The notes under the pieces are model-generated. The model searched no databases. It saw only the letters and a list, made by a program, of their open reading frames with translations, and was not told the DNA's origin. A program made the translations under genes and the position numbers. Shown one piece after another: positions 1 through 58,123 of a stretch of 64,000 nucleotides of DNA (position 1 is the stretch's first letter; each line of letters begins with the position of its first letter). Where the stretch lies: the NCBI GenBank assembly GCA_973895155.1, contig OZ316894.1, positions 1,690,457 through 1,754,456 of the forward strand, given 5' to 3'. Source of the stretch: Marsupella aquatica. Lineage: Eukaryota > Plantae > Marchantiophyta.

Positions 1-281
1 TGTCTATGACTATACATGATTGGACTCTGATATATATGGTCATGGATGTACGTGTAGAGGCAGTACATGTGAGGACAGCGGAGGAGTTGACACCCTCAAA
101 CATTTAGGAATTTTGTCTCATTCACTTGAGAATAGGTACATGACTCAGGCACCTATATTTTTTGTTTTTTTGTTTTTTTGGAACGTTATGCTACGTATTT
201 TGGCAAGTACAGTCGGGGGTGAAATCCTTAACAGGAAGTGTATTTTTCACTTGCATAATAAAATGACAGGGTGCTGAGTGC

Positions 282-26976: not shown

Positions 26977-28051
26977 AGGAGCGCTTGGGTTAGAACCGCC
27001 CTCGGCAAGGGTCTTTTGGAACTATGGATCTTCTGCAAGAAACTCTACAGTTGCTTGGCCCTGAACTTCGATCACAATCGGGTCTTTCTTGGGACGCTCA
27101 TCTACATGTAAGCTGTCTAAACTCGCATTCAGCTGTTGCAGCTCTGCCATACAATTGTCACCAAATGTGCAATCATTCGAGGAACTACTCATTGTGTCGT
27201 CAACGATAGCAGCGCCTTTCATCATTGACATCCCTATGCTAAATGATGGCCTGTCCATCCAAATCAACAATGCACAAACTAGGAGGTCCTCCAACAGCTT
27301 CAATTCACCAACCTGCAGTTGCATATGGACAGTCCATGGCAATAGCAGTTAGAGCAGATAAAGCGACAATGACCAGATTGCACATAAGAAAATGAGTTAG
27401 CAAGCATAGCAAGACAAATGTGACCCGGCCCTCTCAGCGCCTCTGGCCCGCCAACCTCCACATACGTGTACAATCCATGGCTGGAATCGGCAGCAAGAAC
27501 CGATGGCAAGAGCATTCAACTCGTCCTCCAATGCTTCTCGCTCGGCACCCTGTAGGCGCACACAACTATCCATGAATTTAGACCAAACAACGTCATCAAA
27601 CGGAGAATGCGACATGATTTATCAACATAAACCAATGCACAAACAAATCTGCAAGCAATAGTGTGACCCAGCCCTCCAACACCTCCGGCTCGCCAACCTC
27701 CAGTCGCGCATCAACAAGGTAATATGCAGCAATGTGAGTAGCGAAATCAATCAATCTCCCGATAGTGAGCCGCTGGCAACACGAAGTATACACGACAACT
27801 CAAGAGCGCAGTGCACCGGGAGCACAACACCAATCTACAAATCTACGGAACATCTGCGACATAATGACAAATACCTGAATAGTGAGCGCCATATAGCTGG
27901 CGGCCTCTGGTTGGCATTTGACCTAAGCCGTTCGATTAGCCCGCCCTAGCTCCTTTCAATCGGAGCTGTCCATCAGTTTTCACGACCCTGACACAGCACG
28001 ACGCTTGGAAGGCCATCCATTCCTCCCGATGTAATCTCCGTCGTTCGTTTT

Positions 28052-30038: not shown

Positions 30039-33000
30039 ATGGCGGTGGTAAGTGAAGTCGTTGCAGTATGCAGTTCAATCCTCGGCATTGTGTCAAAGAT
30101 CGACAATGTCAAGGAAGACTGGTTCACTGCATCAGCCGAGTACCAAAGTGAAGCGGAAATCCTCCGCTCAAGGCTCATCTCCTACGTGGAGCAAGTCCGT
30201 ATCCATCAGCAACCAGTGGATAGTACTATGATGAAGACTTTGAAGAGAGCCGAATCAACATTGAAGAGGGCGGAAGCAAGATTGACCAGCTTGGAAGAAA
30301 GCGTCGACAGCAACCAGTGCTGTTCGCAAATCTGGTGGTTGTATGCAAAGGTGACCATGACCCTTTTCCCAGAGAAATTAGAAAGCACATTGAAGAAGGT
30401 GAACCAGGACCTTGATGGCATCCCCAAGATACTCAAGGACGAACAGGAACTCTCTGGTCTACTGCGAGAAGCAGGCAAGAGTCGAGCCATCTCTACAGTT
30501 GTCCACAATAACGATAATAAATATGTGCCAATAGAAAAGTCACAGTCTGCGGTCATTCAAGCCATTGAAAATTCTGACGGCCCTCCCATGATACTACTGC
30601 ATGGTGGAGTAGGTAAAGGCAAGTCCACTCTTGCCAGATACATGTGTGAGCGCTACGGGCAATTTGGAGAAAAACAAGGCCTCTTTGATCACGTGATTGT
30701 GGTGTCGTGTGCTAATAGCTCCATAATTGATCTTGCCACCAAGCAATATGAAATCTTGGAGCAGCTTAGTCCGGCGAGTTTAACGGAGGAAAGCCGCTCA
30801 AAATCTGGAACTGGAAAATCTGGGGAGAGTATGGGCTCAAAGTCTAGAATTGCAGAAGCTCTGCAAAAGTTCTTCATTGGCAAGAAGGTTTTGATGGTCT
30901 TAGACGACGTTTCAGATAAGGGATTTCTGTACAAAATGTGGGAGGCTGCGAGAGATGGTAAAGATGATAAGATCCTCATCACTTCCCAATTGTCGAACAT
31001 ATGCGATGACTTTAAACATGACTCTTTGCTTATTACGATGGAAGATCCTACCAAAGAGGAAGCGAGACAGATCCTTGCTTCTCTTGTGGGGCTGGAGAGT
31101 AATCGAATTCCTGAGAATATACAGGTTAGTTCCCCTCAAGCACATTTCACCTTGGTCGTTTATTGAGGAGGTACGTGTTTTGTTAAAATGTCCGTTGTAT
31201 TTCTTTTTAATATCTACCAACTAAATTTAGTCCTCACTGTTTTATCTTTGTATGCAGGGGATAGCAGATGAGATGATCAAAGCTACAGCGGGAAATCCCT
31301 TAGCTTTGGCATGTTTGGCAAGTAACTTTGCTTATGCAAAGCATGCTAAAGATAAAACAAAGAAGCGGGATTGGCAAGCTGCTTGGACAGAGTTATCTCA
31401 GTTGCTAGGCAATAAAGCGATGGCTATCGTGGTAGGGCAGAATAGTGAGACTGCAGCTAGAAGCCTGTCGGGTGCTATGAAGATTTGTATAGATTCTCTT
31501 CAAACAGAGGATGCAAAACACACACTGTTCCTAATGTATGCATGTAAAGGAGAATCGGTTCCTGAAGAGGTTCTGCGGATTTTGTGCTCTAGTAAGATGT
31601 CAAATTCTACATTCAAGCGGTCCATAGATGAATTGTCTATGCGAGAGCTACTGAAGCCTACGACTGATACATTAGCATCTAAGATGAACTTGGAGAAGGA
31701 ACCAAATGTCGAGGAGTCTCCTGCATGGTTGCTACAGTCTTTAGTGAAGCTCTTTATGGAAAGGCATCTGGTTGGGAAACAGGAAATGAGTGCAGTGATT
31801 GGGGCCTTGGTTGGCGATGACGAGTTTCCACCTGAGTCGAGCTCCAAATACAAGGTAGAGGACTATGAACAGGAAATAGTGAAGATTACAACCGGGACTG
31901 GAACAGAAACCACGGAGAGTGATGAGATGAGGGTGACAATCGCTCTGTGTGCTCTGTACTTTGACCGCCGCCATACCGATCAAGGCGTGACTCGAGCTGT
32001 GGCTAAGGCTTCCAAAATATCCAATCTTGAAGATTCGGATGAGAACATCAATGATCTGAGGAGGAAGGCGATTGAGCCGTTGATATGGCTTCTCGACAAG
32101 CCTGAAGAGGACGACGAATGGACGAAAAGCGATAAATGCTGTGTGAGGAAGGTAGTGTCCTGTCCCCTTGAGTATGTTCTTTCGTTTGCAACTTATGTCA
32201 GTCCAAATTGAGGTTAGGGAATCATTCGAGTAACTCTAATACTTCGGCACTCACAGATCTAACAGTTCACATGTTTGCGCATGACCGATTGAGTCAAAGT
32301 TTACTAGCCGTACTTTCAGCCATTGTTTGCAGTTGCCACTTCTTTTGAAAATCAAGGACGGTTCTGTGTAAACTATACAAATTCGACTTCTCCCGTGAAA
32401 TTACTGTTTGATAGCACGTGGCTATGAGGTAAACGCAAGTATTATTTATCTTGTAAGTCTACTGTACAGAATAACAATTTAGGTTCTATATGTGATAGTT
32501 TCTAAAATCAGAGGTCGAGTCTAAGAAGCATGATTTCTTAGACGAGCCATGTGTCTTGGTGAACTTTGTTTGCCTTGTTATTTCACATGATTTCTTGGAA
32601 ATCGTAACAGTTCTGATCTATATTAAACCAATCGCGGTTGTTTCAAGTGATGTTGTGTCACTGAATTGTTTTGGACTTGTGAATCACTTACTTTGCAGGT
32701 TGTTCTTGACTACATATGCAAGCGCCAGCTAAACAACGAGAACATCATTTACCTGTTGAAGTTGGCTGCTGGTCCTGCTGTACAGCTGGCCACTCTCAAG
32801 GCTATCGCTCACATTACATCAATAGAAGAAACACCCCTGCTCAAAGAAAACACAGTCCAGTTTTTACAAGCTGTGGTCGACCTTTTGCATTTGAAGGAGG
32901 GTTTACACACTGGCGTTCAAGAGGCGGCCTCTACGGCACTACGTCGTGTTTGTTGGAAGGCCGCGGGTGACAAATCAGCAACCCTTGTTGCTAACATGTC

Positions 33001-35310
33001 GTCTGTTCTGGACGTGTTGGTACACTCCCTTGCCATTCCCGTTTGGGAGTCAGAGGCTTTTGCCGAAAACGCAGCATATGCTTTGAAGGGCTTAGCATTC
33101 TCGGAGGAAGAGGACATTGAACAAATAATTGTGAACAAACAGGACCTACTAGCTAGTCTTGTGAATTGCTTGTCTCAGAATTCCACGCCTAGTTTGCAAA
33201 AAGCCGCAGCAGGGGCTTTGGAAAATCTAGCTTGCACTCAAGATGACGCTGTCAAGCTGAGAATCGCCAATGAAGAAGGGGCTGTAATTGCCCTTGCGAA
33301 TTGCTTGTCGAAGGATGAAAATCCCCACTTACAAATACGAGCAGCAGCGGCTCTACGAAATCTAGCTTCTTCGAACGATGACTTTTGCAAGTTGAGAATC
33401 GTTAATGAGAAGGGGGCTCTAGTTGACCTCGCGAATTGCTTGTCAAAGCATGACAATTGTGAGTTACAAATAAAAGCAGCAGGGCTCCTGCGAAATCTAG
33501 CTTGGACTCTAGATGACTCTCTTAAGTGGAGAATCGCCAATGAGAACGGGGCTCTAGTTGGCCTCGCAAATTGCTTGTCAAAGCATGACAATCGCGAGTT
33601 ACAAATAAAAGCAGCAGGGGTCCTGCGAAATCTAGCTTGGACTCTAGATGACTCTCTCAAGTTGAGAATCGCCAATGAGAAGGGGGCTCTGGTTGGCCTC
33701 GCAAATTGCTTGTCAAAGCATGACAGTCGCGAGTTACAAATAGAAGCTGCCGCGGCTCTGCGAAGTCTAGCTTTTTCAAAAGATGACTCTCTCAAGTCGA
33801 GAATCACCGATGAGAAGGGGGCTCTGGTTGGCCTCGTCAATGTCTTGTCAAAGAATGACAGTCGCCAGTTACAGATACAAGCTGCTGGGGCTCTGCGAAA
33901 TCTAGCTTGGACTCCAGATGACACTCTCAAGTTGAGAATCGCCAATGAGAAGGGGGCTCTAGTTCGACTCGCGAACTGCTTGCGAAAGCGTGACAATTGC
34001 GAGTTACAAATAGAAGCTGCAGGGGCTCTGCGAAATCTAGCTTTTACAAAGGACGACTCTCTCAAGTTGAGAATCGCCAATGAGAATGGGGCTCTGGTTG
34101 GCCTCGTAAATTGCTTGTCACAATGTGCGAACCCTGATGTGCAAAGAGAGGCAACAATAGTGATATCAAACCTAGCTCTTGCTCCAGATGGAAAGGCGAT
34201 CCTTCAAGGAGCGGAAGGTCTGTTGCAGGGCCTTACAAGCTTGGTGGAAGATGACGTGCGTCGGGATATTCGAAGTTCAGCAGTACAAGCGCTGTTTCGA
34301 ATAGACCTGACACTAGCTAAGGAAGTGGGGTTGCTCTCGGCACAACTAGATGGCAAAGCTTTAAGGTATGGTCGTGAATTCTTAATTGATTTCGAGCACA
34401 ACCTAGATTGTATAAAGTTCGATGGAAGGGAACAAGATCATGCAACAAAGTGGCCAGTGTAAAAAAAGAATTCCGTAGTGAGTAACGAAGCTAAGGGCAA
34501 TATCTGTACAGAGGCTAGTTTATCGTGCAGCAAGATACTACACTATACTAACCATTCTGCCTAATCAGCTGACCTGACAAGCTCAGTTGGATAGATAATT
34601 AACCTATACTTGATTCGAGGGTTCAACTAGCGGAAGAGTTCAGAATTTCCAGAATTTGGTAGACCTTTTCCCTCGTTTGTCTCTTGATCTGCCTCGGTTA
34701 GCAGGCAAGCGAATTTGTGGCCAGCATTTTGACGATAAGATTGGGAGTTTTCTTAGCATTGCAGATTCCAGCCGATGATTTATTGTACCATAGTTTGGAA
34801 GCGTCCAAGCCTAGTGGCGTTGGATAGGATAACACAGCTACACTTGAAATATGGTAGTAGCCGGAGTTGAGAAGGGAGGTTGAACATGTTGACATCCAAC
34901 TGCACGTGAATGTTTTGCAGCGTACATTAACTAAGTTTCATATTTGTGCTTGCAGTCATAGAATTTTTGTAAAAGCAAAATTTGGAGACTTTGAAGGGGC
35001 ACTGGATGATGCCAACGAGGCAATCACGATGCCGGATGGCGAGAGGTTTTTTATCTTGCAGGAGAGAGGTGTCTTGAAACGAATGATGGAAGACCTTGAG
35101 GGAGCCCTGGCTGATTTGGAGGAAGGATTAAAACTAGAAACGAATGACTACGAGATGCTGAAGCATCGTGGTTATGTCAAATCCTTGTTAAATGACGTGG
35201 AAGGCGCTCGAGCAGATGCAGAGTGGGCTCTATCGATCCAATCCTCAAGGGATGACAGCGATGACTACTTGGGAGCAACCCCTGTAGAATACTTGGGCTA
35301 CAAGCTGTAG
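30039..35310 (+). CDS. Non-canonical NLR-like STAND protein copy 1: 4-helix/RPW8-like CC + NB-ARC + Armadillo repeats (7 core units) + TPR; 1333 aa
   Basis: Exons 30039-31124, 31258-32151, 32699-34365, 34956-35310, all GT-AG with matching phases (4002 nt). Walker A GGVGKGKST, Walker B KKVLMVLDDV, RNBS-B KILITSQ, GLPL-like GNPLAL. ARM units of type LANCLS..N..LQ..AA..LRNLA. TPR exon GDFEGALDDANEAI / EDLEGALADLEEGL / NDVEGARADAEWAL. Confidence 0.9.
33158..34102 (+). repeat. Seven tandem 135-bp (45-aa) Armadillo repeats with high internal DNA identity
   Basis: Exact 135-bp period with recurring AATTGCTTGTCAAAG...GAGTTACAAATA...CGAAATCTAGCT...AAGTTGAGAATCGCCAATGAG. Confidence 0.95.
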
Positions 35311-36545: not shown

Positions 36546-37368
36546 AGGGGGGACTTAAATATAGGCTGTGACTTATTTCCTGGGCAGTGCAAGTTAGGGC
36601 TGGGTTCCATGGGCCAGGGGCAGGGAGTAAGATCACTCCCTCTGACACCCCCTGCGGCCCAAATACCCATATGCCAAGGTGTACATAGTATTTTAAATGT
36701 ATGAGTTTTGACTTTAGAGCCAATGAGAATGCATTGTACTGTCACTATATAGGGGCAGGGGTTGCCCCTTGAATTTAACAGGGAGTGTGAGGGAAAATCA
36801 TACTCCTTACTTCCGTCTTTGTACACTCCTCACTCCCTGGAACAGCTGTGATCTTATTGACTCAAACATGCTGGCACACATGTGCACTCCCAGCCCCATG
36901 GAACCTAGCCCAGATAGGCAACATAGTATGGCAGCCCCCAGGCCAAGTGCGCACAATGTGGTTGCGGGTTTTGACTGTTTCCTGGCGACCATGTGGGTCC
37001 AAACGTCACCTTTGTTTGGTTTTTTTGGAAAGCAGAGCATCTTTCTTGCGCTTGCAGTTCTGGTTTACCTACACCACTTGTTTCCCAATGCGAACAAAAC
37101 CTAAAAGCCATTTTTTTTAAGCTTGTTATATCAGCCTGGGGTCCGCCTTAAACTGCCACCAGCCAAGACAAAAACATGATTACACAGATTTCACCACTTT
37201 TAGTACTTTTTCTCACAATTGTGGAACAAAGCCTCACAATAGAAGAGAGAAATGTAAAAAAGTGAGGAGTTTTGGACACTCCTCCTTTTATATGGCCAGT
37301 GGTGTTTTAAGGGCACACGAGTGGTCATTTTGCAATGAAACCAACCGACCCTAATTTTGAGTCCCCCT
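36546..37368. mobile_element. Probable MITE (~820 bp)
   Basis: Imperfect TIRs AGGGGGGACTTAAATATAGG ... CCTAATTTTGAGTCCCCCT. The TSD is ambiguous (ATT/TTA). Non-coding interior. Confidence 0.5.
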
Positions 37369-37537: not shown

Positions 37538-39805
37538 AGCAGTGGAACAGATACAGAGAACTGTGGAGTGTTGCGCGTTGAATCAAAGTAGTGAAAAGCT
37601 GCGCTGAACCACGCCGTGGATTACCCTCTAAGCGAATGATGAAGCTTGAAGATGAGTTTTAAGTCACTCCTTGCTCATCAATGTTCGTTCTCTCTCGATG
37701 ATCATCTATCTTATGATATTTTACTCACTGCTATTTCCTACTGTGAAATTGATCTGCTCTATAATCTCGTACTTTTCCACTTGAAGAAGGCTTGAACGCT
37801 GTGAAATTGAATTTTAATGTAGTTGACCCGTGTGTATCTTTTGCAAGGTCATAGATCCTGGGCGTCTGAGTGAAGCACTGTCGGGACCTTTGAAACCCTC
37901 TCTGAATGGGGCCACTTCGGCAGGGGCTGCAGATGGGAATGTTAGGACCCCCCCTGAGAGTCCTGGCGCGGATGGAGGGAAAGATGGGTAACTGGATTCA
38001 ATACTTGCCGCTGTAAGTTTGTTACTCCTCCAAATTATGCTGTTCTGCTCGATTAAACTATCCCCGGATTAACAAACTCTGCAACCTCTTTGTCTGTGAT
38101 AAATGCGTTGTGTCTCTTCGTAAACCATTTAATTGTGACCAGCAAATCATCACTTGCTACCTCTGTGGCTTTGAGAGTAATCCGCAAAGATCGGGTGTGC
38201 AATGCAATTTGACCGCTGCTCACGTGAGTCCTAACATTGGTGCCGTGCAGGTGAAGCTTCTTTTTGCTGGAGAGAGCAAGTTATGTGACCAGATATTCTA
38301 TCATCTAGACCGACATCGAGAAATGGCCTTTGCAAAAGTCACGGAATCAAATACTACCATGCTTACCAGCTTTGCGGATGCCATTGCTAGAAGCAAAAAG
38401 TCACGAGAAAAGCTGTTTGTTCTGCTGGACATGTATGAGACCATGCGTGACCTTTCGCCAGACGTTTGTAGAAACCTTATCCTTCTGACATACTGTAAAT
38501 GTTTTTTATGTGCTGAAAACTTTGGTTGTTCATTTTTGGGTGTAGTTGGTACTAGGGTAGCTTGCTGGGAACCAGACCTGCTACCGCAGTTCTTATATCA
38601 CAGTTCCTGGAAATTGGTTAATTGTGAAATGCTTTCCAACCAACCAAAATCAAACCCGTTCTTTCTGAAGCTGATGGGATCTTGCATTCCAATTGACAGA
38701 TTGAATTAATCTGATCAGGAGAATAATGCGGCAGGCACACGTGAAGTGGCCAGTAATTTGTTGACGACTGCGAGTGATACACGCAATTGAATTGATGCAA
38801 CAAAGGCTCCTGTTAATGATGGAACTGTCAAACCGCTTACAAGCTTTGTCATCAATTACCTCAAGTTTCTGCTTACGTAAGTCCTTCCGTTCCTCAGTGA
38901 AAAGTTTTTGTTGCCCACATGATGGGCGTGAGAGTCTGATGAAGTAGATATTATGGTTATTGATTGGTACCCCTACACCACTACTCCGCTTTATCAGAAT
39001 GTCAAACCAGTGACTCGTTGCCATTTCGAATTTTTGTCAATGTAACTTTCTAAACTTTTTGTTGGTCCTCTCGTTCTCTTTTGAAGTAATCTTTTGAAGT
39101 AATCTTTGCTACATGAGTTTGCCGAAGGGCGTTCATCCAAGCGAGGTTTTGACACCAAGATACCACGATGCACAGGATTGCGGAGTCTTGTGGTTTGCTC
39201 GGCCACTACAGTACTGAAGCAACTGTTTGGGGAAATGGACAGTGGAGAAAACTCAAATTCCAAGCTGGCAACTTCTGTGAATCTGATCATCCAAAGTGCT
39301 CCAAAGCAACTCAGATTAGAAATCAAAGCTCTGGATCCGGCTCTCACTCAGCTCTTTCTTCTCAACAATATTCACTACATGATGAGATCTGTCCGAAGGT
39401 GGGTTGGCAAACGAATGCCTCACTAGCAAAGCCTGGATTGTGAACTAGTTTGCCATTTCTTTTTAGTTCAGCGTTTTCTACTTGTGACGGAAAGGCAGCA
39501 GGTTTACTTGCGTACATAAGAATTTGATTTCTGCAAGATTATATTTCCAATTTTTATCCTGTGCAATTAACAATTGATCGTGTGTGAGATTGCTGATTGG
39601 TGTCATATTTCTCGGTTGTTCTGGTAAACTATTTTCTTCTGACTTCATAGTTCGCCAGTGAATGCCTCAACCATCAGTCACACATGAAACTACATTTATA
39701 TTTGCAGGTCGGAAGCGAAAGAGTTGTTGGGATGATAGGGTGTAACGACATCTACAACTTGTGCAGCAGCATGCATCTATATGTTAGTGGTCTGCCTGGG
39801 GAAGG
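37538..39805 (+). pseudogene. EXO70A: Exocyst subunit Exo70A partial pseudogene (intron-containing, middle exons)
   Basis: MMKLEDEFKSLL; VKLLFAGESKLCDQIF...DAIARSKKSREKLFVLLDMYETMR; DATKAPVNDGTVKPLTSFVINYLKFL; DPALTQLFLLNNIHYMMRSVRR|SEAKELLG**. These match Exo70A1 motifs but carry stops and frameshifts. Confidence 0.85.
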
Positions 39806-42800
39806 TTATCGTTGTGGTATCAGTACTGATTGCTTTGCGACGTTGCTGTAGTTAGAGGGACTATTCAAGCGTTAGATGCTTTCTTTAATAAGAGACCAAA
39901 GGAACTCTTTAAGTATCATCCAGTCGTAGATGTCCTTCTACAGTAGTGCTCCGAGACAGCGCGACATAATTAAATATTTTGAATGGGGACATTGCCTCAC
40001 TGAGTTAGTGTACGAGCACAAAAAGCATTTGGTCCGCAGGGAAAATTGTTGTTTCCGAATTCCCTTTCCTAAGTCAGATCGACCAGATGCATTGGCCATA
40101 CAAAACAATGGAATATTCCTTTTCAATCTTTGAGTCTATGCGGTCCTATTTTCAAAATCAGCTTCCAGAGCAGAGGTATAGTTTTCTGTTTGGAAATTGA
40201 TGCGATCGATTGGCTGCTGTCCGAGGGAGGCTGCGTACAAATTTCTCGGTACCCATTGATCTCATCCCGTTGCCTAGGATTTGTAGTCAACTACAACCTC
40301 TGCTTCTCGACCGTTTACTGTTTGGGCTTGAATGACATCCATTGGCACAAATGTTTTAATCTTTTTCTTAGCAAGTACTCTCGAGTTCCCTGTGTTACCT
40401 CAAGTTTCAATTACCGCCAGGCCCGGTTAACTTTGCCATTGCCATCTTTTCTCAGACGTGTGTTCATCAGTCTGCTATTCTGAAGGCGCAGGACTGCATT
40501 TGTAGGAACGAAATTATCCTAAGCTGCACGAAACCGCTCAAGAGAAAAAGGCCACGGTCTGTCACTGTACCAAACATCTCTAGTGTGGAAGCCATGGCGA
40601 GCACAGGATTCTAAGTCAATTACCATCCCAGAATGGTCCTAGCTTGAGAGCTCACTTAAATGCCAGGACGCTTCGAATACGTTTACTTAGTTTGTTCCAA
40701 ACTCAAGCTAATCCCAGAATGTCACTTACCTGGGACTATAGTCCTCAGAACTTTCCCGTGTACAACCTGATAGGATTATGGATCCCCAACGTTCATCGAG
40801 TTTGTCCACTTGCGAATTGCTGTGGTCAGCTCTCCTTTCCTTGGACTTTTCTCCCTTTTTTCCGGCAGTTCCCTTATCCGTTAGACAGAAAGTTTTTGAA
40901 ATAAAAAAGAGACAAAAAAGTCTTTTCACATGTCGACATCCCTGCAGAACGACTGTATGCGTTGCTCAATGTCCCAGGAGATTGTGAAGAATTTAACCCA
41001 GAGTCGGATCTCGTGGAAGAACATGGCCGTGCCTGTTGGTCAATCGATTGACTGAACGAACCATCTGTCGTATTGTCGAGTAGGAGAATCTTTAGTCTAT
41101 TATTTATTAATACTTTGTGGGTCCGCCTGCCGGCGAGCAAAGGCTGCAGAGTGATGCTGAAAGGTGAGGGAGGCTGGCGTGGTGTTGACGAAGTGCACTT
41201 CCTGTTGCTCCTACAGGCTCTAGTACGAGAGATTCTTAGTTGACAGGAAATCCATCGATCGAACAGAGAGTTCTCGGGGCTTTGCACTGCATCTTCCGTA
41301 GTTCCATGAGGAAACTTATCCCCGAATTTATCCTTAATGTTTGCAGCACATTCGATGTCCAAACGTTGTAGCGAGATCCTTCTCCAAAGGGATGGCTATT
41401 GTACGAAGTCGGTGTGGCCTCCAAGACATAGCTTCAGAGCACTCTGAAATGGTTTGCAGGTCTGCACCCTTTTCGTTTCGACACTCCAATTTCATAGAGT
41501 AGAAACTTCTCTGGGTATGGCAATGCTTCGATTGGGCCGGGGTGGCTCGATCAGCCCGGGATACAGTAACTACAGTAGCTCGACAGTTAACTGATCTTTC
41601 CTTCCTTCCCCACAACCGATATCCTAGAACTAGTAGATATACAGTGAAGCTGAAAACTTTCCTCTTGCACGAAGACTAAGTCTAACATTGTAATTGCGGC
41701 GGCCTTGCTACGGGCGCATCTCCTTACCAGTAGTCTTGGGTTGCATCTGTTTGTGCGGGTGTGGGTATTGGGGCCGCAGTTCACTAGACAGGCGCTTGAC
41801 CTTCTCACCGTTCTGATCTACCTTCTCTGCATCCAGATAGATTCGAGCTTTCAAAGTAATAAAATCTACTTAAGTTGAAAACTGTGTCGTGCTTGCAATT
41901 GAGAGAGTGGGTCGATTATAATTGCCGGTGCATATTGTTTACAGCACTCTATGTGTGTGAGGGGAAGGGGGACCGGGCTCTTGGTGAAGGGTGATATACA
42001 CTTTGCAGTCTACAGACACTTTAATGGCGTCGAAGATCACAGTCATCCAGCATGGGTCCAAATTACCTTTTGCAGGCTCCTGCTCACGACAATCTAGGCG
42101 GATCTTGTGGCGTCCAAACTCTTCTCCAGGACTGCACAGCTGAAAGTAACCTGCTCCATTTGCTGTCGCTCCACCGATTGGGCTGGAAAGCACGGCTGAA
42201 CTTGATTAGTGTGCAATTGGGACGGATGATATCGGACATCGGCTATATCGTTCTATACCTAGATCTAGACGGTCAGCATCTGATGTATGCTCGATCCTAC
42301 ACCACTAGTGCCGCTCCAGTTTTCAGTCGTTATGATTCGAGGTCTCGCAAATTCATAGCCGTGCTAGGCATCACCTTGATGATCCTTGTGACCCTTGTCT
42401 ATGCCAACCATACCCAATTACTCCAAGCTCTCTTGGAACCTTTGATCTGATTAAGTGTCACTCCGAATCTGATGAAGCAGATGAGCATTTCACTGGCTCT
42501 TGGAAGTGGTGGGGACAACTCTTGTTGGGTTAGTAATGGTTCAACTCAACAGGGGTTCTCCCTGAATCATGAGGATGCAGCATTGCTCAAATATTAAGGA
42601 CACATAACTCCGGCGACGAACTAAGTACGCGGGTAAGGCCACTCCACGAAGAAATACATTTTTTTCTGCAAGACATTCATGTCCAATGGTAGTAGCGAAT
42701 TCGTTTTCCAAACGACATCGCTATTATGCGGTTTCGGTGGCCTCATAGACATAGCAGCGACGTTAATGTGTGAAGCCCTCCGAGCTTAGATACTGTTATC

Positions 42801-42848: not shown

Positions 42849-45800
42849 ATGGCGGTGGTAAGTGAAGTCGTTGCAGTATGCAGTTCAATACTCGGCATTG
42901 TGTCAAAGATCGACAATGTCAAGGAAGACTGGTTCACTGCATCAGCCGAGTACAAAAGTGAAGCGGAAATCCTCGGCTCAAGGCTTAGCTCCTACAAGGA
43001 GCAAGTCCGCATCCATCAGCAACCAGTGGACAGTACTATGATGAAGACTTTGAAAAGAGCCGAATCAACACTGAAGAGGGCGGAAGCAAGATTGAAGGGC
43101 TTGGAGACAAGCGTCGACAGCAACCAGTGCTGTTCGCAAATCTGGTGGTTGTATGCAAAGGTGACCATGACCCTTTTCCCAGAGAAATTAGAGTGCACAT
43201 TGAAGAAGGTGAACCAGGACCTTGATGGCATCCCCAAAATACTCAAGGACGAACAGGAACACTCTCGTCTACTGCGAGAAGCAGGCAAGAATCGAGCCAT
43301 CTCTACAGTTGTCCACGATAACGATAATAAATATGTGCCAATAGAAAAGTCACAGTCTGCGGTCATTCAAGCCATCGAAGATTCTGATGGCCCTCCCATG
43401 ATACTACTGCATGGTGGAGTAGGTAAAGGCAAATCCACTCTTGCCAGATACATGTGTGAGCGCTACGGGCCATTTGGAGAAAAAAAAGGCGTCTTTGATC
43501 ACGTGATTGTGGTGTCGTGTGCTAATAGTTCCATATCTGATCTTGCCACCAAGCAATATGAAATATTGGAGCAGCTTTCTCCCACGAGTTTAACCGAGGA
43601 AAGCAGTTCAAAATCTGGAACTGGAAAATCTGGGGAGAGTGTGGGCTCAAAATCTAGAATTGCAAGAGCTCTCCAAAATTTCTTCATTGGCAAGAAGATT
43701 CTGATGGTCTTAGACGACGTTTCAGATAAGGGATTTCTGTACAAAATGTGGGAGGCTGCGAGAGATGGTAAAGATGATAAGATCCTCATCACTTCCCAAT
43801 GGTCCAACATATGCGACGACTTTAAACATGACTCTTTGCTTATTACGATGGAAGATCCTACCAAAGAGGAAGCGAGGCAAATCCTTGCTTCTCTTGTGGG
43901 GCTGGAGAGTAATAGAATTCCTGAGAATATACAGGTTAGTTCCTCGAGTAGATTTCACCCTGGTCGTTTATTGTGGAGGTACTTGTTTTGTTAAGTTGTC
44001 TGCTGTACATCTTTCTAATGTCTACTAACTAGATTTAGTCCTTACTGTATGTTTTTATCTTTGTATACAGGGGATAGCAGATGAGATGATCAAAGCGACA
44101 GCGGGAAATCCATTAGCTTTGGCATGTTTGGCAAGTAACTTTGCTTATGTAAAGGATGCTAAAGATAAAACAAAGAAGCGGGATTGGCAAGCTGCTTGGA
44201 GAGAGTTATCTCAGTTGCTAGGCAATAAAGCGATGGCTATCGTGGCAGGGCAGAATAGTGAGACTGCCGCTAGAAGCCTGTGGGGTGCCATGAAGATTTG
44301 TATAGAATCTCTTCAAACAGAGGGTGCAAAACGCACACTCTTCTTGATGTATGCATGTAAAGGAGAATCGGTTCCTGAAGAGGTCCTGCGGATTTTGTGT
44401 GCTGGTATGAAGATGTCAAATTCTATTTTCAAGAGGTCCATAGATGAATTGCGCATGCGAGAGCTACTGAAACCTACAACGGATACATTAGCATGGAAGA
44501 TGAATTTGGGGAACGGACCAAATGACGAAGTGTCTCCTGCATGGTCCATACAGTCTTTAGTGAAGCTCTATATGGAACGGGATGTGGTAGGGAAACAGGA
44601 AATGAGGGCAGTGATTGGGGCATTGGTTGGTGATGACCAGTTTCCACCTGAGTCAAGCACCAAATACAAGGTACACGACTATGAAACCGAAATATTGGAG
44701 ATTGCAACCGGGACTGAAACAGCAACCGTGGAGAGTGATGAGGTGAGAGTGACAATTGCTCTCTGTGCTCTGTACTTTGACCGCCGCCATACCGATCAAG
44801 GCGTGACTCAAGCCGTGGCTAAGGCTTCCAAAACATCCAATATTGAAGACTCTGAAGACAACATTAATGATCTGAGGAGGAAGGCGGTTGAGCCGTTGAT
44901 ATGGCTGCTCGACAAGCCTGAAGAGGACGACGAATGGACAGAAATGGATAAATGCTGTGTGAGGAAGGTACTGTCCTGTCCCCCTTGAGTATGTTCTTTC
45001 CTTTGTAACTTACGTCAGTCCGAATTGAAGTTAGAGAATCATTCGAGTGACTTTTATACTTGGGTACTCACAGATCATGTTTGCGCATGACCGATTGAGT
45101 CAACTTTTAATAGCCATACTTCAGCTATTCTTCACAACTTCGCACTTCTTTTGAAAACCAAAAGGACGGTCCTCTGTAAAATATACAATGTCAACTTTTA
45201 CAGTGAAAGTAGTGTTTGATAGCACGTGGTTGAGTGGTAAATGCAAGTAACATTTATCTTGGAACTCTATTGGACAGAATAACAATTTCTATATGTGATA
45301 GTTTTGAAAGAGTGCGAGTCTTGGAAGATTGATTTCTTGTGGTAGTTGAAGAGCCATGTGTCTTAGTGAGGTTTTCCTGCCTAGTTTCTCTTCGACAGGA
45401 GTTCTTATCTACATTCAACTAATCGAGGTTGTCTGCAATTATATATTGTCACTGAATTGTTTTAGAATTGTAAATCACTTTCTTTGCAGGTTGTTCTTGA
45501 CTACATATGCAAGCGCCAGCTAGATAACGAGAACATCACTTACCTCTTGAAGTTGGCCCCTTGTCCTTCTGCACAGTTGGCCACTCTTGAGGCTATCATT
45601 CACATAACACGGATAGAAGAAACGCCCCTGCTCAACGTAAACACAATCAGCTTTTTGCAAGCTGTAGTTGACCTTATGAACTTGAAGGAAGGTTTCCGCA
45701 CCAGTGTCCAAGAGGCAGCCTCTTTAGCCCTGTCTCGTCTTTGTGTGAAGGCCGCGCGTGACAAATCAGCAACCCTTGTTGCTAACTTGTCGCCTGTTCT

Positions 45801-47272
45801 GGACGTGGTGGTACGCTCCCTTGCCATTCCCGTTTGGAAGTCAGAGGCATTTGCCGAAAACGCAGCATATGCTTTGATGGGCTTAACATTCTCGCAGGAA
45901 AAGGACATTGAACAAGTAATTGTGAACAAACAGGACCTACTAGCTAGTCTTGTGAATTGCTTGTATCAGCAATCCAAGCCCAGTTTGCAAGCAGCCGCAG
46001 CAGGGGCTTTGCGAAATCTAACTTTTAGTCTAGATGAAGCTGTCAAGCTGAGAATCGCCAATGAAGAAGGGGCTCTTGTTGGCCTCGTGAATTGCTTGTC
46101 ACAATGTGAGAACCCTGTTGTGCAAAGAGAGGCAACAGCAGCGATAACAAACCTAGCCCGTACTCCAGATGGAAGGGCGATCCTTAAAGGAGCGGCAGGT
46201 CTGTTGCAGGGCCTTACAAGCTTGGTGGGAGATGACGTGCGTCGGGATGTTCGAAGTTCAGCAGTACAAGCGCTGTTTCGAATAGACCTGACACTAGCTA
46301 AGGAAGTGGGGTTGCTCTCGGCACATCTAGATGGCGAAGCTATAAGGTATGGTCGTGATTTTTTTTAATTGATTTCGAGCACAACCTAGATTGTATAAAG
46401 ATCGATGGAAGGGAACAAGATCATGCAACAAAGTGGCCAGTGTAAAAAAAAGAATTCCGTAATGAGTAACGAAGCTAAGGGCAATATCCGTACAGAGGCT
46501 AGTTTATCCTGCAGCAAGATACTACACTATACTAACCATTCCGCCGAGTTAGCTGGCTTGAGAATCTCAGTTGGATAGAGAATTAGCCTGTATTTGATTC
46601 GAGGGTTCAACTAGCGAAAGTGTTCAGAATTTCCAGAATTTGGCAGACTTCTTCTCTCATTTGTCTCTTGATCTGCCTCGGTTAAGCAGGCAATCGATTT
46701 GTGGCAAGCCTTTTGACAATAAGGTTGGAAGGTTTCTTAGCATTGTAGAACCAGCTCATGATTTATTGTACCATACATTTTAAGACGTCCAAGCCTAGTG
46801 GCATTGGATTGAGTAACATAGCTATACTTGAAATATGGTTGTAACCGAAGTTAAGAAGAAAAGGGTGAACATGATGTGTTTGCAGCGTATAACGAAGTTT
46901 CATGTTTGTGATGGCAGTGATAGAATATTTATAAAAGCAAAAGCTGGAGACTTTGAAGGGGCACTGGCCGATGCCAACCAGGTAATCACGATGCCGGGTG
47001 TCGACAGGCGGTTTGTCTTGCAGGAGAGGGGTGTCTTGAAACGAATGATGGAAGACCTAGAGGGAGCCCTGGCAGATTTGGACGAAGGATTAAAACTAAC
47101 ATCAAATGACTACGAGATGCTGAAGCATCGTGGTTATGTCAAATCCTTGTTAAATGACGTGGAAGGCGCTCGAGCAGATGCAGAGTGGGCTCTATCGATC
47201 CAATCCTCAAGGGATGACAGCGACGACTACTTGGGAGGAACGCCTGTAGAATACTTGGGCTACAAGCTGTAG
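42849..47272 (+). CDS. NLR-like CC-NB-ARC-ARM-TPR copy 2 with a single core ARM unit; 1064 aa
   Basis: Exons 42849-43934, 44071-44967, 45490-46346, 46918-47272 (3195 nt, open). Same intron positions and phases as copy 1. One 135-bp core unit at 45949-46083. Confidence 0.9.
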
Positions 47273-50258: not shown

Positions 50259-51163
50259 TCGAACTTCTCTGTTTTACAGTTCTTCGTATTTTCCCGCAGT
50301 CCTTTTTTAGTAAATTCTATGTTGATGCAGTTTGTGCAATCGCCACAGTTGCACGAAGATGTGAGATCAAAGTCTTCCTTTCCACAAGCTCTTCAGTAGT
50401 GATTTCCCTGCGCGCAATTCGAAGCTAGCAATTAATCACGTAGGAAGCATAGCTCAGTCGACTTCGTGCATACCGAGTTGCCGAGTTCAGTGAGAACTTC
50501 GCCTTGACTTTGGACCGGGGTATTGCCAGATTGCATTATGCAGATACAAATGTGGGAGATCAAGCGTGTGTTGATGTATAACACCAGCCCGAATAAACTG
50601 AGGTCAAGTTGAGTTCGGGAGTGACAGCCCTCCCTCGCCGCACGCAGGTATTCTGGCCGTGCATAATTAGTCAACTTGTTTCTGCTGTAGAGCAGGCCTC
50701 AATTTCATCGAACATTGAGGTCGCCGTTTCTGCAATCTGAAATTCTACAGCTCGAACCTTCAATTCAGGTCGCCGGAGATGGTCATTACCGACGTTGGCC
50801 GCAAGGTATGTGTTGTTCATACATGTTGAGTGAGCTTGCACTAGGACCATATCTGTACTTCAATCGTCGAGCTTGTCTTTGCATTGCCCTAGCCCTCTCC
50901 TTCATTCAGCACGTACTCGACAGAACTTGTAATGGTTGCAGCTCTGCAGATCTATTTTGTTTCGACAAATAGAGTAGAAACTTTTCTGGGTATTGCAATG
51001 CCTCGATTAGCCCGTGATGCCTCGATCAGATCGGGATGCAGTATGTACAGGAGCTCGACAGTGAAGTGATGTTTCTTTCCTTCCGGAGCGTTGATCTCTT
51101 AGAACTTAGTAGATCTACTTTTACGAGAAGTCTTGGGTTGCATTTGTGTGTGTGGGTACGTGT

Positions 51164-54100
51164 ATGACAATAGCGAGTTACAAACACAGGTAGCACGGGC
51201 TTTGAGAAATCTAGCCTCCTCAAGACATCACGAGTATCTCGGGCTCAGATCCGACAATGAGCGTGCTCTGGTTCGCCTCGTGAATTGCTTGTCTCGTCAA
51301 TCCAAGCCTAGAATGCAAGCAGCCGCGTCAAGGCGTTTGCGAAATCTGGCTGCTACTGGAGATGACGCTGTCAAGCTGAGAATTGCCAATGCGGAAGGGG
51401 CTCTAGTTGGGGTAGTGAGTTGCTTGTCAAACGATAACAACAAGAAATTACAGTTGCATTCAGCATGGATTCTGGTAGCACTAGCAGGTTCAAAAGATGA
51501 GTCTCTCAAGTTGAGAATCGCCAATGACGAGGGGGTTGTGGTTGGCCTCGTGAATTGCTTGTCAAAGCATGACAATCCCGAGTTACAAGCAACCGCAGCA
51601 GGGGCTTTGCTAAATCTAGCTATTAATGGAGATGAGTCTGTCAAGCTGAGAATCGCCAATGAGGAAGGGGCTCTGGTTGCGGTAGTGAGTGGCTTGTCAA
51701 ACAATAAGAACAGTAAATTACAACTCCGTTCAGCATGGATTTTGGCAGCACTGGCAGCTTCAAAAGATGAGTCTTTCAAGTTGAGAATCGGCAATGAGGA
51801 CGGGGTTCTGGCTGGTCTCGTAAATTGCTTGTCAAAGAATTACAATGTCGTAAATTGCTTGTCAAAGCATTACAATCCTAAGTTACAAACAGCCGCAGCA
51901 TCTGCTTTGCGAAGTCTATCCATTGGGGGTGAGGCTGTCAAGCTGAGAATCGCCAATGAGGAAGGGGCACTAGTTGGGGTAGTGAGTTGCTTGTCAAACA
52001 ATAAGAATAGTAAATTACAATTGCATTCAGCAACGATTTTGGCAGCCCTGGCAGATTCAAAAGGTGAGTCTTTCAAGTTGAGATTCGGCAATGAGGACGG
52101 GGTTCTGGCTGGTCTCGTAAATTGCTTGTCAAAGCATACAATGCTGAGTTACAAACAGTCGCAGCAGCCGCTTTGCAAAAACTTTCAATTGGAGGTGAGG
52201 CTTCCAAGCTGAGAATCGCCAATGAGGAAGGGGCTCTAGTTGGCATAGTGAGTTGTGTGTCCAATGATGAAAACGGCAAATTACAATTGTATTCAGCATT
52301 GACGTTGGCAGCACTGGCAAATTCAGAAGATGAGTCTCTCAAGTTGAAAATCGCCAATGAGGATGGGGTTCTGGTTGGCCTCGTAAATTGCTTGTCAAAG
52401 AAGGACAATCCCAAGTTACAAGTAATTGTAGCAGTGGCTTTGGGAAATCTAGCTTGTACTAAAGATGACGCGGTCAAGCTGAGAATTGCCAATGAGAAAC
52501 AGGCTCTAGTTAGCGTAGTGACTTGCTTGTCAAATGATGACAACGGCGAATTGCAAACACAGTCAGCACGGATTTTGGCATCTCTAGCAGCTTCAAAAAA
52601 TAATTCTCTGAAGTTGAGAATCGCCAATGACAAGGGAGTTCTGGTTGGCCTCGTAAACTGCTTGTCAAAGCATGAAAATGCCAAGTTACGAGAAGTGGCA
52701 GTAGGGGCTTTGATGAATCTTGCCACTTCACAGTCCCTCAAGCTGAGAATTGCTAATGAGGAAGGTGCTATAGTAGGCCTCGTGAATTGCTTTTCTCAGA
52801 AAGCCAATCCAAGTTTGCAAGCAGCTGCAGCAGGGGCTTTGCGAAATCTAGCTTGTACTACGGATGACGCGGTCAAGCTGCGAATTGCCAACGAGGAAGG
52901 GGCTCTGCTTGGCATAGTGACTTGCTGGACAAACGACCACAACCCCCAATTACAAAGACATTCAGCATACATTTTGACAGGTTTAGCAGCGTCAAAAGAT
53001 GAGCCTCTCAAGTCGAGAATCGCCAAAGAAGTGGGGGTTCTGGTTGGCCTCGTCAATTTTTTGTCAAAGCATGACAATAGCGTGTTACAAGCACACGCAG
53101 CACGAGCTTTGAGAAACCTAGCCGCTTCAAAAGATGAGTCTGTCAAGTTGAGAATCGCCAATGAGGAGGGTGCTCTGGCTGGCCTCGTGAATTGCTTGTC
53201 ACAATGTGAGAACCCTGATGTGCAAAGAGAGGCAGTCATAATGGCATCAAACTTAGCTCGTGCACCAGATGGAAAGGCGATCCTCAAAGGAGCGGAAGGT
53301 CTTTTGCAGGGCCTTACAAGCTTGTTGGGAGATGACGTGCATCCGGATCTTCGAAGTTCAGCAGCACAGGCGATTTTTAAAATAGACCCGACACGAGCTA
53401 AGGAAGTGGGGTTGCTCTCGGCACAACTAGATGGCCGAGCGTTAAGGTATGGTCGTGAATTTATCACTGATTTCGGCACAACTCTAGATGGTATAAAGAT
53501 GGGTGGAAGGGAACAAGATTGTCCAACGAAGTGGCCAGTGTAGAAAAAGAATTCCGAAGTAAGTAACGAAGCTAAGGGCAGTATTTGTGCGAGTATTTGT
53601 GCATATGCGATGATTCATGAGAGTAGTTTATCCTGTAGCAAGATGATGTACTATACAAACCATTCCGCCTAATTAGCTGGCTTGACAAGCTCAGTTGAAT
53701 AGAAAAATAAACTCGCCTCGATTCGATGGTTCAACTAGCGGAAGAGTTCAGAATTTCCAGGATTTCGCAGAGTTTTTTCCTCATTTGTCTTTTGATCTGC
53801 CTCGGTTAGCAAGCAAGCGAATTTGCGGCGAGCCTTTTGACGATAAGATTGGAAGGTTTCTTAGGATTGCAAACTCCAACAGAGGATTTATTGTACCCTA
53901 CAATTGGAGACGTCCAAGCCTAGTGGCGTTAGATTGAGTGGGTACTTGAAATGTGGTAGGAGCCAACTTGACAAGAAAGGGTGAACGGATTGAAATCCCA
54001 GTGCGCGTGATTGTTTGAAGCGTATAACTAAAGTTTCATATTTGTGATGCAGTCATAGGATTTTTGTAAAAGCAAAATTTGGGGACTTTGAAGGCGCACT

Positions 54101-54407
54101 GGACGATGCCAACCAGGTAATCACGATGCGGGATGTCGAAAGGCGGTTTGTCTTGCAGGAGAGGGGTGTCTTGAAACGAATGATGGAAGACCTTGAGGGA
54201 GCTCTAGCAGATTTGGACGAAGGATTAAAACTAAAAGCAAATGACTACGAGATGCTCAAGCATCGTGGCTATGTCAAATTTTTGTTGGATGACGTGCATG
54301 GCGCTCGCGCAGATGCAGAATGGGCTCAATCAATCCAACCCTCAAGGGAAGACACGGACTGCTACTTGGGAGGAACCCCGGTAGAATACTTGGGCTACAA
54401 ACTGTAG
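51164..54407 (+). pseudogene. NLR-like copy 3: headless ARM array (14 units plus a partial one) + cap + TPR exon; lacks CC and NB-ARC; one frameshift
   Basis: Upstream sequence homologous to 41.5-41.77 kb is fused directly to mid-repeat sequence at ~51164. 1-nt deletion at ~52137 (AAGCATACAATG vs AAGCATTACAAT). Conserved last intron 53447-54052 and intact TPR exon 54053-54407. Confidence 0.85.
51277..53183 (+). repeat. 14 tandem ~135-bp ARM units, largely alternating A/B types
   Basis: 1907 bp = 14x135 + 30-bp duplication (51818-51877) - 3 - 3 - 6 - 1. A type: LVNCLSK..N..LQ..AA.AL.NL. B type: VVSCLSN..N.KLQL.SA.IL.ALA.SK. Confidence 0.9.
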
Positions 54408-54863: not shown

Positions 54864-57204
54864 GAATTGCACCACTCGGACATTGTGGGATTCGAAGCAA
54901 GGCTTGGCTTGAATCACGATCATGACATGCGATTACCTGTCTGTGGCTGGAAAGCTTGGACTTTGTAGCATCAGATATCCCTTTGTAATTGTACGGCGGA
55001 TCTAATTATATAAAGAGCATACTCAGGCATGGGTCTCAATATTACAGACCAAGAGCTCACTTGGACAAACTCTAATATCAACATGCTTAATTGAAGTTTT
55101 GTAGTACCTTGTAACTTCTGTAGTATTATCCAGTAGAGAAAGAGAAGACACCCTTTTGGCTAAAATTTTCCTGTACAGAAAGAGAAGACACTTTTTGGCT
55201 GTCTTCATCTCTTTTTTTCGACAGCTAGTGTCTCTGGTTCTTCAGCTGGCCCAGGTTTTCACCCTCCTTCGTAGGGCTAAGGCAGTTGATTTTAGGGCCT
55301 CCCGATAGGTTCTGCTTGGTGACCTTGCTATGCGGGGCACTCCGGAGCTCTACAGACTTTTCAGTTCTATGCTGAGTAGGGTGTACCTCATGGCTCCTTT
55401 GTAGGTTACTTTTTGGTCTTTGTTCCTTAGTCTGTTTTTGTTTGGGGACCCCTTGACTCTTTTTTCTTGGGGCCCTTTCTCCTCTTTCCTTTCTCTTCAT
55501 TGGATTGCTTTGCCTTTGGGATCATGTCTCCTGGTTCAATTTTTTTTGCCCTTGGGCACTGAGATATATATTTTGGCTGTGCTTCCAAAAGCACAGTTTT
55601 CTCCTTTCAAAGAGAAACAAAGAGATCCAAAAAGGGCAACTACAATAAGATAATAGTGATGTTGCTTTACGACATATCAGTCCCATCGCATTGGGGGTCC
55701 TTGTTGGCTGTACATTGTTCAGTGCTATGTAGTAATCACTGGAATGATATAGTTAGGATGCAGTTCTGCTGATTTCCACATATCTTTTGTTATCTAGCTA
55801 TATGGTTTGAAATATTGATTCTAAAATATCTCAACTGCCATGAGAGGGAGTAAGGTTGATTGGATTTAGGCGCAAGGAGGGGTAGCATTTGGAGAAGTGG
55901 TCAACATATTTTGAGGGTTTCCTAGAGCTAACAACAGCCCACTTCACATTCTTGTAGTGAACCTCACTATCCTTACTTAATTTTGCCTTCCTTAACTTTT
56001 AGGTCCGGTTCCTTGCTCTCAACTTTGTGGCATTTATTGCAACTCACTCTTCCAATTTCTCAGGGTCTTTTAGGCTTCCGTACATTGAAAGCACCTTTGG
56101 CCTTTTAGGGCACATGCAAGTGCAAATGAGTTACAACCAGAACATCTGAACACAATTATATTATGGTCAAGACAAAAATCCTTATGGATACCTATAATGA
56201 TGCCCATAAGGAGCAGACTTCCAAAAAGTGGATGCATATAACTTGAGAATCTCATCATTCACAGCTAATTAATTAATCATAGCCATAAGACCTTGATTTT
56301 GGCAGTGCATTGCCATGCCTTGGTGACCTTAAAGTCTAAGTAAGACTAACTTTTGTCAATTTTTCAGAAAAAAAATTATCCACTTTGTTTAAATTGCTAG
56401 TAAAACTTGGGCGATCTTGAGTCCAAAGTAACACTAACTCTTGTGGATTTTTCAAAACAGTTTTTCCCCCTACAATTTACCACTCTTGAGACCACAATAA
56501 CACTACTTCATGTGCGCGTAAGTAGTGTTATGACCAACTTAGTGTGACTAACACTAATTAACAAGTAAACCCTGAAATTCCTCTATTTTTCCACTCTTGA
56601 GACCACATTAACACTAATTCGTGCACATGGAAATAGTGTTATGACAAAATTATTGCAACTAACCTTATTCACGAGTAAACTGTCACTCTTGAAAGAATGG
56701 AAATTGAAGCCCAGATAGACCTCTAGGTTTGTCAAAATGCTCCCGGGCATGGATTTTTGCACAAATGGACTGCATTTTACTCACAATGACATAATTAGGA
56801 AATATTTCCTAATATTCCTTAGTAGCCCACATCCTGATTGTGTGGTTGATATCTAAGTTCCATGGGAGCATCATTCAGATCATTGTAAAAAACAAGGAAA
56901 CAGCAAAAAAATTCCCCAGCACGAGCAGAAAATTTCCTCACATGACCCCTGATTTTTCCTATATCCAACTCCTTAGCTAACAAGAACCTGGTTGATAAGA
57001 TACATTTTGGGGATTCCTCTTTTTGGTAGCAAACTTGTTAGCCATCTGGAGTCATAAAAAAACACAAAAATATATAATAGGCAGCAAAAAGCAATAGAAA
57101 TTTAAAATCACTAGTCTTTCACTAACAACACTCTCCTCGCTAACAACATTCCTATTTGCTTCCATTATACAATACCTCCCATCATTTTCCAAATGAATGT
57201 AACG

Positions 57205-57900
57205 CCAATTACCTTGAACCATGTAGACGTGGCAGACTGTACAGTAGGCCTAGCACTAATTATTGTGTGAACCATTTGGACGTGGTAGACTGTACAGGTA
57301 GGCCTAACACTAATTACTGTGAACCATGTAGACGTGGTAGAATGTACAGTCTGCCTAACACTAATTACTGTGAACCATGTAGACTTGGTAGAATGTCCAG
57401 TCTGCCTAACACTAATTACTGTGAACCATGTAGATGTGGTCGACTGTACAGTAAGCCTAACAGTAATTACAGTAAACCATGTAGACGTGGTAGAATGTAC
57501 AGTATGCCTTAACACTAATTACTGTGAACCATGTAGACTTGGTATACTGTACAGTACGCCTAACCCTAATTAATGTGTGAACCATAGAGACGTGGTAGAC
57601 TGTACAGTAGGCCTAACACTAATTACAATGAACTATGTAGACGTGGTAGACTGTACAGTAGGCCTAACACTAATTACTGTGAACCATGTAGACGTGGTAG
57701 ACTGTACAGTAGGCCCCAGTCGACTGTAGTGAGTGTAGCCCTAACACTAATAACTAATTACTTTGAACCATGTAGACGTGGTAGACTGTACAGTAGGCCA
57801 CAGTCTACTGTAGTGAGTGTAGGCCTAACACTAATTACTGTGAACCATGGAGACGTGGTAGACTGTACAGTAGGCCCCAGTCTACTGTAGTGAGTGTAGA
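57205..57900. repeat. 51-bp minisatellite, ~12 units (ACTAATTACTGTGAACCATGTAGACGTGGTAGACTGTACAGTAGGCCTAAC)
   Basis: 51-bp period (e.g. 57309 to 57360). The last three units carry an added CAGTCTACTGTAGTGAGTGTAG segment. Confidence 0.95.
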
Positions 57901-58123
57901 TGAACTTTCTCGATGCAAACGGCAGGAATCTGCTCACAATGCACCATCTCCAATGTCTGCGAACATCAAGGTCCTTCGAGCAAATGATGCACAATCATTG
58001 TGTGCAGCTGAAGGGCGGGTGAAGAAAAAGTGAAGTGAAGTGTAACTGTACTGTACTGGGTTAGGGTTGAAGGATCAATTGATTCATTCAGGGGAGGAAA
58101 CCAATTGCAATCTGAGCTCAGCG

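Follow-up and report, generated by a model that had tools for sequence, protein, structure and literature searches.

A tandem paralogue that has lost six whole armadillo (ARM) units in register, and that would encode an NLR-like receptor with a changed ligand, is the reading of copy 2 that we consider reasonably probable. The window, by which we mean the whole 64-kb stretch of DNA that was analysed, carries on its + strand two complete tandem genes (copies 1 and 2) and one remnant (copy 3); all coordinates below refer to that strand. The six-unit difference between the two complete genes is in itself ordinary repeat-array evolution by whole units, and repeat loss and recombination are a known source of immune-receptor variation. 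It matters as a marker of family diversification, and the family appears to be of more interest than the event, as its variable ARM arrays would behave much like the repeats of fungal NLRs.

The gene models of the two complete copies, which are predictions based on splice signals and on junctions that match the annotated relatives P0001 and P0002, have four exons each. Copy 1 (30039..35310; exons 30039-31124, 31258-32151, 32699-34365 and 34956-35310) has a predicted product of 1333 aa. In copy 2, exon 1 (42849..43934) encodes the N-terminal helical domain (approximately aa 1-147) and the NB-ARC domain, exon 2 (44071..44967) encodes the ARC subdomains with a GLPL-like motif and a helical linker, exon 3 (45490..46346, 857 bp) encodes six predicted ARM repeats, and exon 4 (46918..47272) encodes TPR-like repeats followed by the stop. 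All introns of both copies are GT-AG, and exon 3 is bounded by AG/GT in each. The joined four-exon ORFs (4002 nt in copy 1 and 3195 nt in copy 2) contain zero internal stops, and the in-frame state claimed for the predicted spliced genes in an initial annotation of this DNA was thereby confirmed. Both copies lie on the same strand, head-to-tail and ~7.5 kb apart, and apart from the six-unit difference they are ~90% identical. Copy 3 (51160..54407) is a 5′-deleted, frameshifted remnant that retains ~14-15 ARM units, the cap, intron 3 and exon 4. A read-through frame into intron 3 is conserved in copies 1 and 3 and broken in copy 2.

Exon 3 of copy 1 has 1667 bp and that of copy 2 has 857 bp, so that the annotated gap of 810 bp, or 6 × 135 bp, was reproduced exactly. 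Seven core 45-aa units precede the cap in copy 1 and one in copy 2. This single 135-bp unit (45928..46062) is orthologous to copy 1 unit 1 (89% nt identity) and, as had been described, abuts the cap (46063-46197) directly; the six internal 135-bp ARM units u2-u7 (33272..34081) are found only in copy 1. Tandem repeats finder (TRF) reported a 135-bp array in copy 1 (6.8 copies, 82%) and in copy 3 but detected no 135-bp array in copy 2. The global alignment of exon 3 contains a single gap, with 762 of 857 bases matching, and places the best breakpoint of the 810-bp difference at 46068..46074, after exon base 579-585. At this junction, the first 12 nt of the copy 2 sequence are of the unit-2 type and the sequence thereafter is of the cap type, which is how a crossover within shared sequence would be expected to read. 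Crossover or slippage had been proposed as the mechanism; the single whole-unit gap and the chimeric junction support in-register recombination between units, and slippage and crossover are indistinguishable over 810 bp. Because 135 bp correspond to 45 codons, retention of the reading frame is expected and does not go beyond chance, given recombination in register. The junction pattern by itself fits an insertion equally with a deletion. A divergence step that would mark a crossover between paralogues was sought at the junction, and none was found, the low-divergence tract covering both sides.

Tandem repeats do collapse in assemblies, and a longer copy 2 array could have been shortened in this way. 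Two studies provide the four public contig sets that cover the locus, and one of the sequencing runs may be the source of the assembly itself. In contig set X1, exact pieces at 45935-46068, 46045-46109 and 46088-46191 have depths of 16.5, 16.3 and 17, and single-copy pieces elsewhere have depths of 15.7-18.6 (both among the pieces listed). The exact pieces listed for X4 (45954-46068, 46045-46107 and 46105-46191) show even depths of 29, 31 and 32, and X2 also contains an exact piece at 46045-46109. The contig pieces run through unit 1, the junction and the cap with zero mismatches. No joint is reported within the array region, although a lack of cover there would carry no weight. Among the pieces listed, none formally bridges the junction with at least 31 bases on each side (the left side spans 24-30), and the left overlap of the junction piece is common to copy 1 unit 1. 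However, the units are merely 73-94% identical, and every other site in the window differs from the junction 65-mer by 6 nt or more. Because contigs tile the short junction at an even single-copy depth, collapse is unlikely, and we give an assembly artefact hardly any credence.

Contraction in copy 2 is the likely direction of change, judging from the sequences of the units. The initial annotation had invoked both expansion and contraction of the array; the divergence of the units, copy 3 and the relatives favour contraction in copy 2. Units u2-u7 share 70-81% identity with the copy-3 units u3/u9/u14, 61-69% with unit 1 and 50-61% with the caps. Because they are closest to copy-3 units, they did not arise from anything left in copy 2, and they therefore need a template of the internal type, which copy 2 lacks. 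Among the internal units of copy 1, each of the 15 pairwise comparisons shows 4-16 differences in 45 third positions (9-36%), and dS between unit 2 and units 3-7 is 0.37-0.57. Between copies 1 and 2, the tract flanking the array differs at 9 of 186 third positions (4.8%), and the sequence upstream of that tract at 22 of 99 (p = 1.5e-5). This low divergence of the flanks implies a recent common ancestor of the array region, after most or all of the six units existed, and the recent shared ancestry probably arose by conversion, as far as the sequence pattern tells. The youngest internal unit pair (4/45 third positions) is not clearly older than the flanks. Moreover, the divergence between copies 1 and 2 is a mosaic of 3-22% per 200 bp, because of which gene conversion blurs the dating. 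For the 3′ part of the gene (cap, intron 3 and exon 4), copy 3 serves as outgroup, with 115 sites unique to it versus 60 and 49.

The mosaic divergence can also be taken as exchange between paralogues, and so accommodates a short ancestor, with copy 1 having acquired its internal units ectopically from another paralogue and then amplified them locally. Copy 1 units 3-7 group together in a clade of their own, identity between units 3 and 4 is 94%, and contig depth hints at additional close paralogues. Such a gain nevertheless requires a donor that is absent from the window, every internal unit pair is more diverged than the flanks, and all six of the nearest named relatives are multi-unit. We accordingly regard a gain in copy 1 as improbable.

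These six relatives (P0001-P0005 and P0009) have 7-15 units, compared to 8 and 2 in copies 1 and 2; the counts come from a copy 1-derived profile, which undercounts distant members. A phmmer search against 1.84 billion representatives yielded 64 matches, 30 of which were looked up: 24 are from liverworts (Calypogeia, Marchantia and Riccia), five are without an organism, and one is an Acacia NB-ARC protein (E 3.8e-6). The five matches of a separate search are all Calypogeia fissa proteins. Judging from these relatives alone, the DNA of the window likely comes from a liverwort. When 16 long relatives were scanned, NB-ARC was found in all 16, ARM/HEAT families in 12 and LRR families in none. In a tree of 30 rows, copies 1 and 2 are sisters (97/97) within a poorly resolved group that includes P0001-P0004, and the NB-ARC tree sets the family apart from five angiosperm NB-ARC rows (98/97, with long branches). 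In a profile search with the full-length alignment, unrelated ARM proteins crowded the output, and the rice protein RLS1 was absent from it; the exon-1 profile retrieved Calypogeia proteins, followed by weak canonical NLRs. No named RLS1-like or Selaginella protein appeared in the profile searches or among the 30 of 64 phmmer matches looked up, and the tree was built without them.

The NB-ARC domain (Pfam PF00931) was recognised in the two copies with 53 and 52 bits at a cut-off of 23.5 (E 8e-14 in copy 2), and in both the P-loop is intact and Walker B is present in the alignment. The best fold matches of exon 1, by Foldseek and VIA, are the plant proteins NRC2/NRC3, ZAR1 and Sr35 (NRC2: Z 17.0, rmsd 2.7, 182 aligned). 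This search barely covered the N-terminal domain, the fold class of which comes from the model and from ESM Atlas leads. The exon 1 model of copy 2 has helices at H2-22, H33-56, H63-90, H97-125 and H128-147. For the first 150 aa, the ESM Atlas gave ascomycete clusters at 0.88-0.91, the best (0.91) with 148 shared features, as a lead only; rows for HeLo, SesA and PigL_N, likewise leads only, scored below 0.9. The first N-terminal helix is hydrophobic, its moment being modest (0.25-0.32), and no MADA/MAEPL motif is evident by eye at the N-terminus. The MHD motif is a feature of canonical NB-ARC-LRR NLRs. At the column that we take to correspond to it, copies 1 and 2 have Gln instead of His; His occurs there in 4 of 11 relatives and is absent from the nearest relatives of copies 1 and 2. 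The missing His is a point against a simple active-receptor reading. Exon 2 of copy 2 alone had no Pfam match. Pfam Arm was above its cut-off in exon 3, TPR families matched exon 4 at E 2e-5 to 6e-4, under the curated cut-offs, and by Pfam there were no LRR families in exons 3-4 and no integrated domain in copies 1 and 2.

Exon 3 of copy 2 is modelled as a continuous ARM solenoid of six repeats (pLDDT 88.8, pTM 0.88), consisting of three degenerate repeats, one core unit, the cap and a terminal repeat; on this model, the ARM domain of copy 1 would have twelve repeats. The best fold matches are designed armadillo peptide binders, with TM values of 0.70-0.76 in most top rows. The repeats are of the three-helix armadillo type, with the helix-3 Asn in 20 of 22 units, and the units could be aligned to OR366 and Vac8, with a unit length of 45 aa compared to 41 in the Pfam Arm model. 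Because exon 3 is confidently predicted to fold as six ARM-like repeats, copy 2 is not minimal.

The earlier suggestion of a minimal helper/executor finds no support in these six repeats, nor in the head-to-tail arrangement of the two sisters, the exon-1 proteins of which are 93% identical. In known sensor/helper pairs, the genes usually lie head-to-head and belong to different clades. A linked pair with copy 2 as the executor would suit the adjacency of the genes and the combination of one long and one short repeat domain, and the near-identical NB-ARC domains could hetero-oligomerise, but these are sister paralogues with nearly alike N-terminal domains (dN 0.039), an intact P-loop in both and no integrated domain in either, which makes such a pair very improbable.

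We compared the positions of the repeat across 22 units of copy 1, P0001 and P0002, and found that the two most variable ones lie 7 and 4 residues before the helix-3 Asn. The six positions of the 45-aa unit that we took to be groove-facing have a mean summed entropy of 3.17 compared to 1.26 for the other 39 (p = 0.0015, three arrays). This variability of groove-facing positions makes a receptor of different specificity, which the initial annotation had offered as its second option, plausible. Between copies 1 and 2, omega is ~1.8 for unit 1 and the cap and 0.44 elsewhere, with 31 nonsynonymous and 6 synonymous changes versus 138 and 88 (Fisher p = 0.009, post hoc). The nonsynonymous excess could fit either a new specificity or relaxed constraint.

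With relaxed selection, copy 2 might be a real deletion product that is dying or de-specified, having lost its binding surface. This would agree with dN exceeding dS around the junction, with the deletion and frameshift of the neighbouring copy 3, and with Podospora, where repeat loss is described as the commonest route of receptor inactivation and accounted for 95/109 and 27/34 inactivated hnwd mutants (PMC2873952). However, the 3195-nt predicted ORF has neither a stop nor a frameshift and its splice sites are conserved, the cap has lineage-specific amino-acid changes in copy 1 too (5 vs 8), and short relatives (1002-1123 aa) occur in Riccia, Marchantia and Calypogeia. We thus consider decay of copy 2 unlikely.

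In the preferred reading of a receptor with a changed ligand, copy 2 would have lost its six whole units when the start of unit 2 recombined in register with that of the cap, and the predicted six-repeat ARM domain that is left would likely recognise a ligand that is shorter or otherwise different. What is known of NLRs and ARM proteins leads us to expect that the groove binds a protein or peptide. By analogy with NLRs, ligand binding would release the NB-ARC switch, oligomerisation would follow, and the N-terminal helical domain would be exposed and trigger defence or cell death. Specificity would be set by the number of units together with the groove residues, and each copy would serve as a receptor alternative to the other, not as one half of a helper/sensor pair.

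The NB-ARC-ARM architecture has been published for rice RLS1 (PMC10030324), and a CC-NB-ARM cluster is described in ferns (PMC12512272), an NB-ARM expansion in Selaginella (PMC8559963, PMC7145615) and NB-ARC-ARM as rare in NLRscape (PMC9825502); in the text available from these sources, function data for NB-ARC-ARM proteins are given for RLS1 only. Copies 1 and 2 resemble the plant CC-NB-ARM proteins in that a helical or CC N-terminus and NB-ARC are combined with ARM repeats in place of LRRs. Unlike RLS1, for which the available text describes three ARM motifs and no TPR (PMC10030324), they have an added C-terminal TPR region and an internally conserved array of variable unit number. The terms ARM and TPR are absent from the main text of PMC11218826. 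With canonical CC-NLRs (ZAR1, NRC, MLA and the liverwort CC-MAEPL proteins) the copies share the P-loop, Walker B, a GLPL-like motif and a helical N-terminus, but they lack LRRs, carry Gln in place of His at the putative MHD column, show no evident MADA/MAEPL motif by eye and form a separate clade.

For fungal NLRs, repeat-number variation, concerted evolution and variable concave-face residues are reported, as are exchangeable N-terminal domains that include alpha/beta-hydrolase types (PMC4986451, PMC2873952). The liverwort ARM family shares repeat-number variation with the Podospora HNWD genes het-d/het-e/het-r and with fungal NB-ARC/NACHT-TPR/ANK/HEAT proteins. It differs from fungal NLRs in its introns, in units of ARM and not WD/ANK/TPR type, and in an NB-ARC fold closest to plant NRC2/ZAR1; in addition, unit number varies here between paralogues, whereas the fungal comparison concerns alleles. 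The fungal criterion is >85% repeat identity over at least 100 aa at the protein level, and the 81-94% identity of copy 1 units 3-7 is at the DNA level; the units of P0002 appear more alike than those of copy 1. The N-termini of P0002 and P0005 are weakly alpha/beta-hydrolase-like (DUF676 E 0.008, PGAP1 E 0.003). Because P0002 differs at its N-terminus and yet its NB-ARC falls into the same tight tree group as copies 1 and 2, N-terminal swapping is suggested.

Among the titles and abstract openings searched, we found no description of a family in liverworts that combines NB-ARC, ARM and TPR and has variable arrays. It is possible, and we put it forward tentatively, that liverworts possess an enlarged set of immune receptors without LRRs, in which tandem, internally conserved ARM units are added, deleted or re-specified at peptide-groove positions and N-terminal executors are swapped. 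The swapped executors would be a helical bundle and an alpha/beta-hydrolase-like domain on near-identical NB-ARC cores. If true, the family would be the counterpart in plants of the hypervariable NLRs of fungi and would amount to a natural, modular code for reading peptides, for which copies 1 and 2 would provide a ready test pair of 12 versus 6 repeats. Should specificity depend on how many ARM units there are and on the residues of the groove, the same pair would allow recognition without LRRs to be tested in land plants of early-diverging lineages.

The Marchantia polymorpha protein 'MpNBS-LRR15' (MARPO_0095s0062) belongs to the same broad liverwort clade and shares the combination of NB-ARC, ARM and TPR with copies 1 and 2, although it is distant in sequence, its cluster representative P0058 being 33% identical across the NB region. 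It bears an NBS-LRR name, and Pfam gives ARM/TPR and no LRR family for it.

Comparison of the window sequence with the tandem NB-ARC-ARM-TPR genes, copies 1 and 2, identified a remnant of a third copy together with joined upstream-like sequence at 50928-54407. Because sequence resembling the region upstream of copy 2 (41445-41770) is fused straight onto an armadillo (ARM) repeat unit at ~51160, copy 3 lacks exons 1 and 2 as well as the beginning of exon 3. The remnant retains ~14-15 ARM units of two, partly alternating types; 30 nt are duplicated and the frame is shifted near 52150.

In copies 1 (34366-34462) and 3 (53447-53543), the exon-3 frame stays open for 32 further codons into intron 3, and these codons are similar; the same read-through in copy 2 reaches a stop after 7 codons. 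From the sequence, the extension in copies 1 and 3 could represent a retained-intron isoform without the TPR region, or could reflect conversion alone.

The public contig sets X3 and X4, which cover the locus, both contain a second variant of the copy 2 ARM unit at 45954-46098, with 5 differences in 145 nt and a depth equal to that of the exact variant; it is another allele, a paralogue or a homeologue. Within window positions 43300-45100, contig pieces matching exon 2 of copy 2 show 2-5 differences and have ~3-8x the depth of intergenic pieces, which gives a hint of more close paralogues beyond the window; depth does not equal copy number.

Because the NB-ARC domains of P0001 and P0002, two Calypogeia fissa protein relatives of copies 1 and 2, are very close but their N-termini differ (helical versus alpha/beta-hydrolase-like), the comparison of these sequences suggests executor swapping among the relatives.

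Between copies 1 and 2 lies an Exo70-like fragment (38017-39800; Pfam Exo70_C, E 2.6e-15) that is apparently broken. Exo70 proteins have been linked to NLR immunity in angiosperms. A repeat at 36600-37310, with high contig depth and many loose ends at ~36667 and 37310, is likely a small mobile element.

Elsewhere, a CACTA-like transposon (Transposase_21 at 267-2189, E 2e-57) is followed by several long ORFs, the whole spanning 267-12000; a Pfam scan of these ORFs returned no match. The minus-strand ORF at 25849-27021 weakly matches a tyrosine recombinase (Phage_integrase, E 0.003) and is possibly a Crypton/DIRS-like element. Two minisatellites were found, one of ~12 copies of 35 bp (21747-22440; TRF) and one of ~10 copies of 51 bp (57200-57899). 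The start portion of an SSB-family gene, the product of which is likely organelle-targeted, lies at 58046-58744 (Pfam SSB, E 4e-6).
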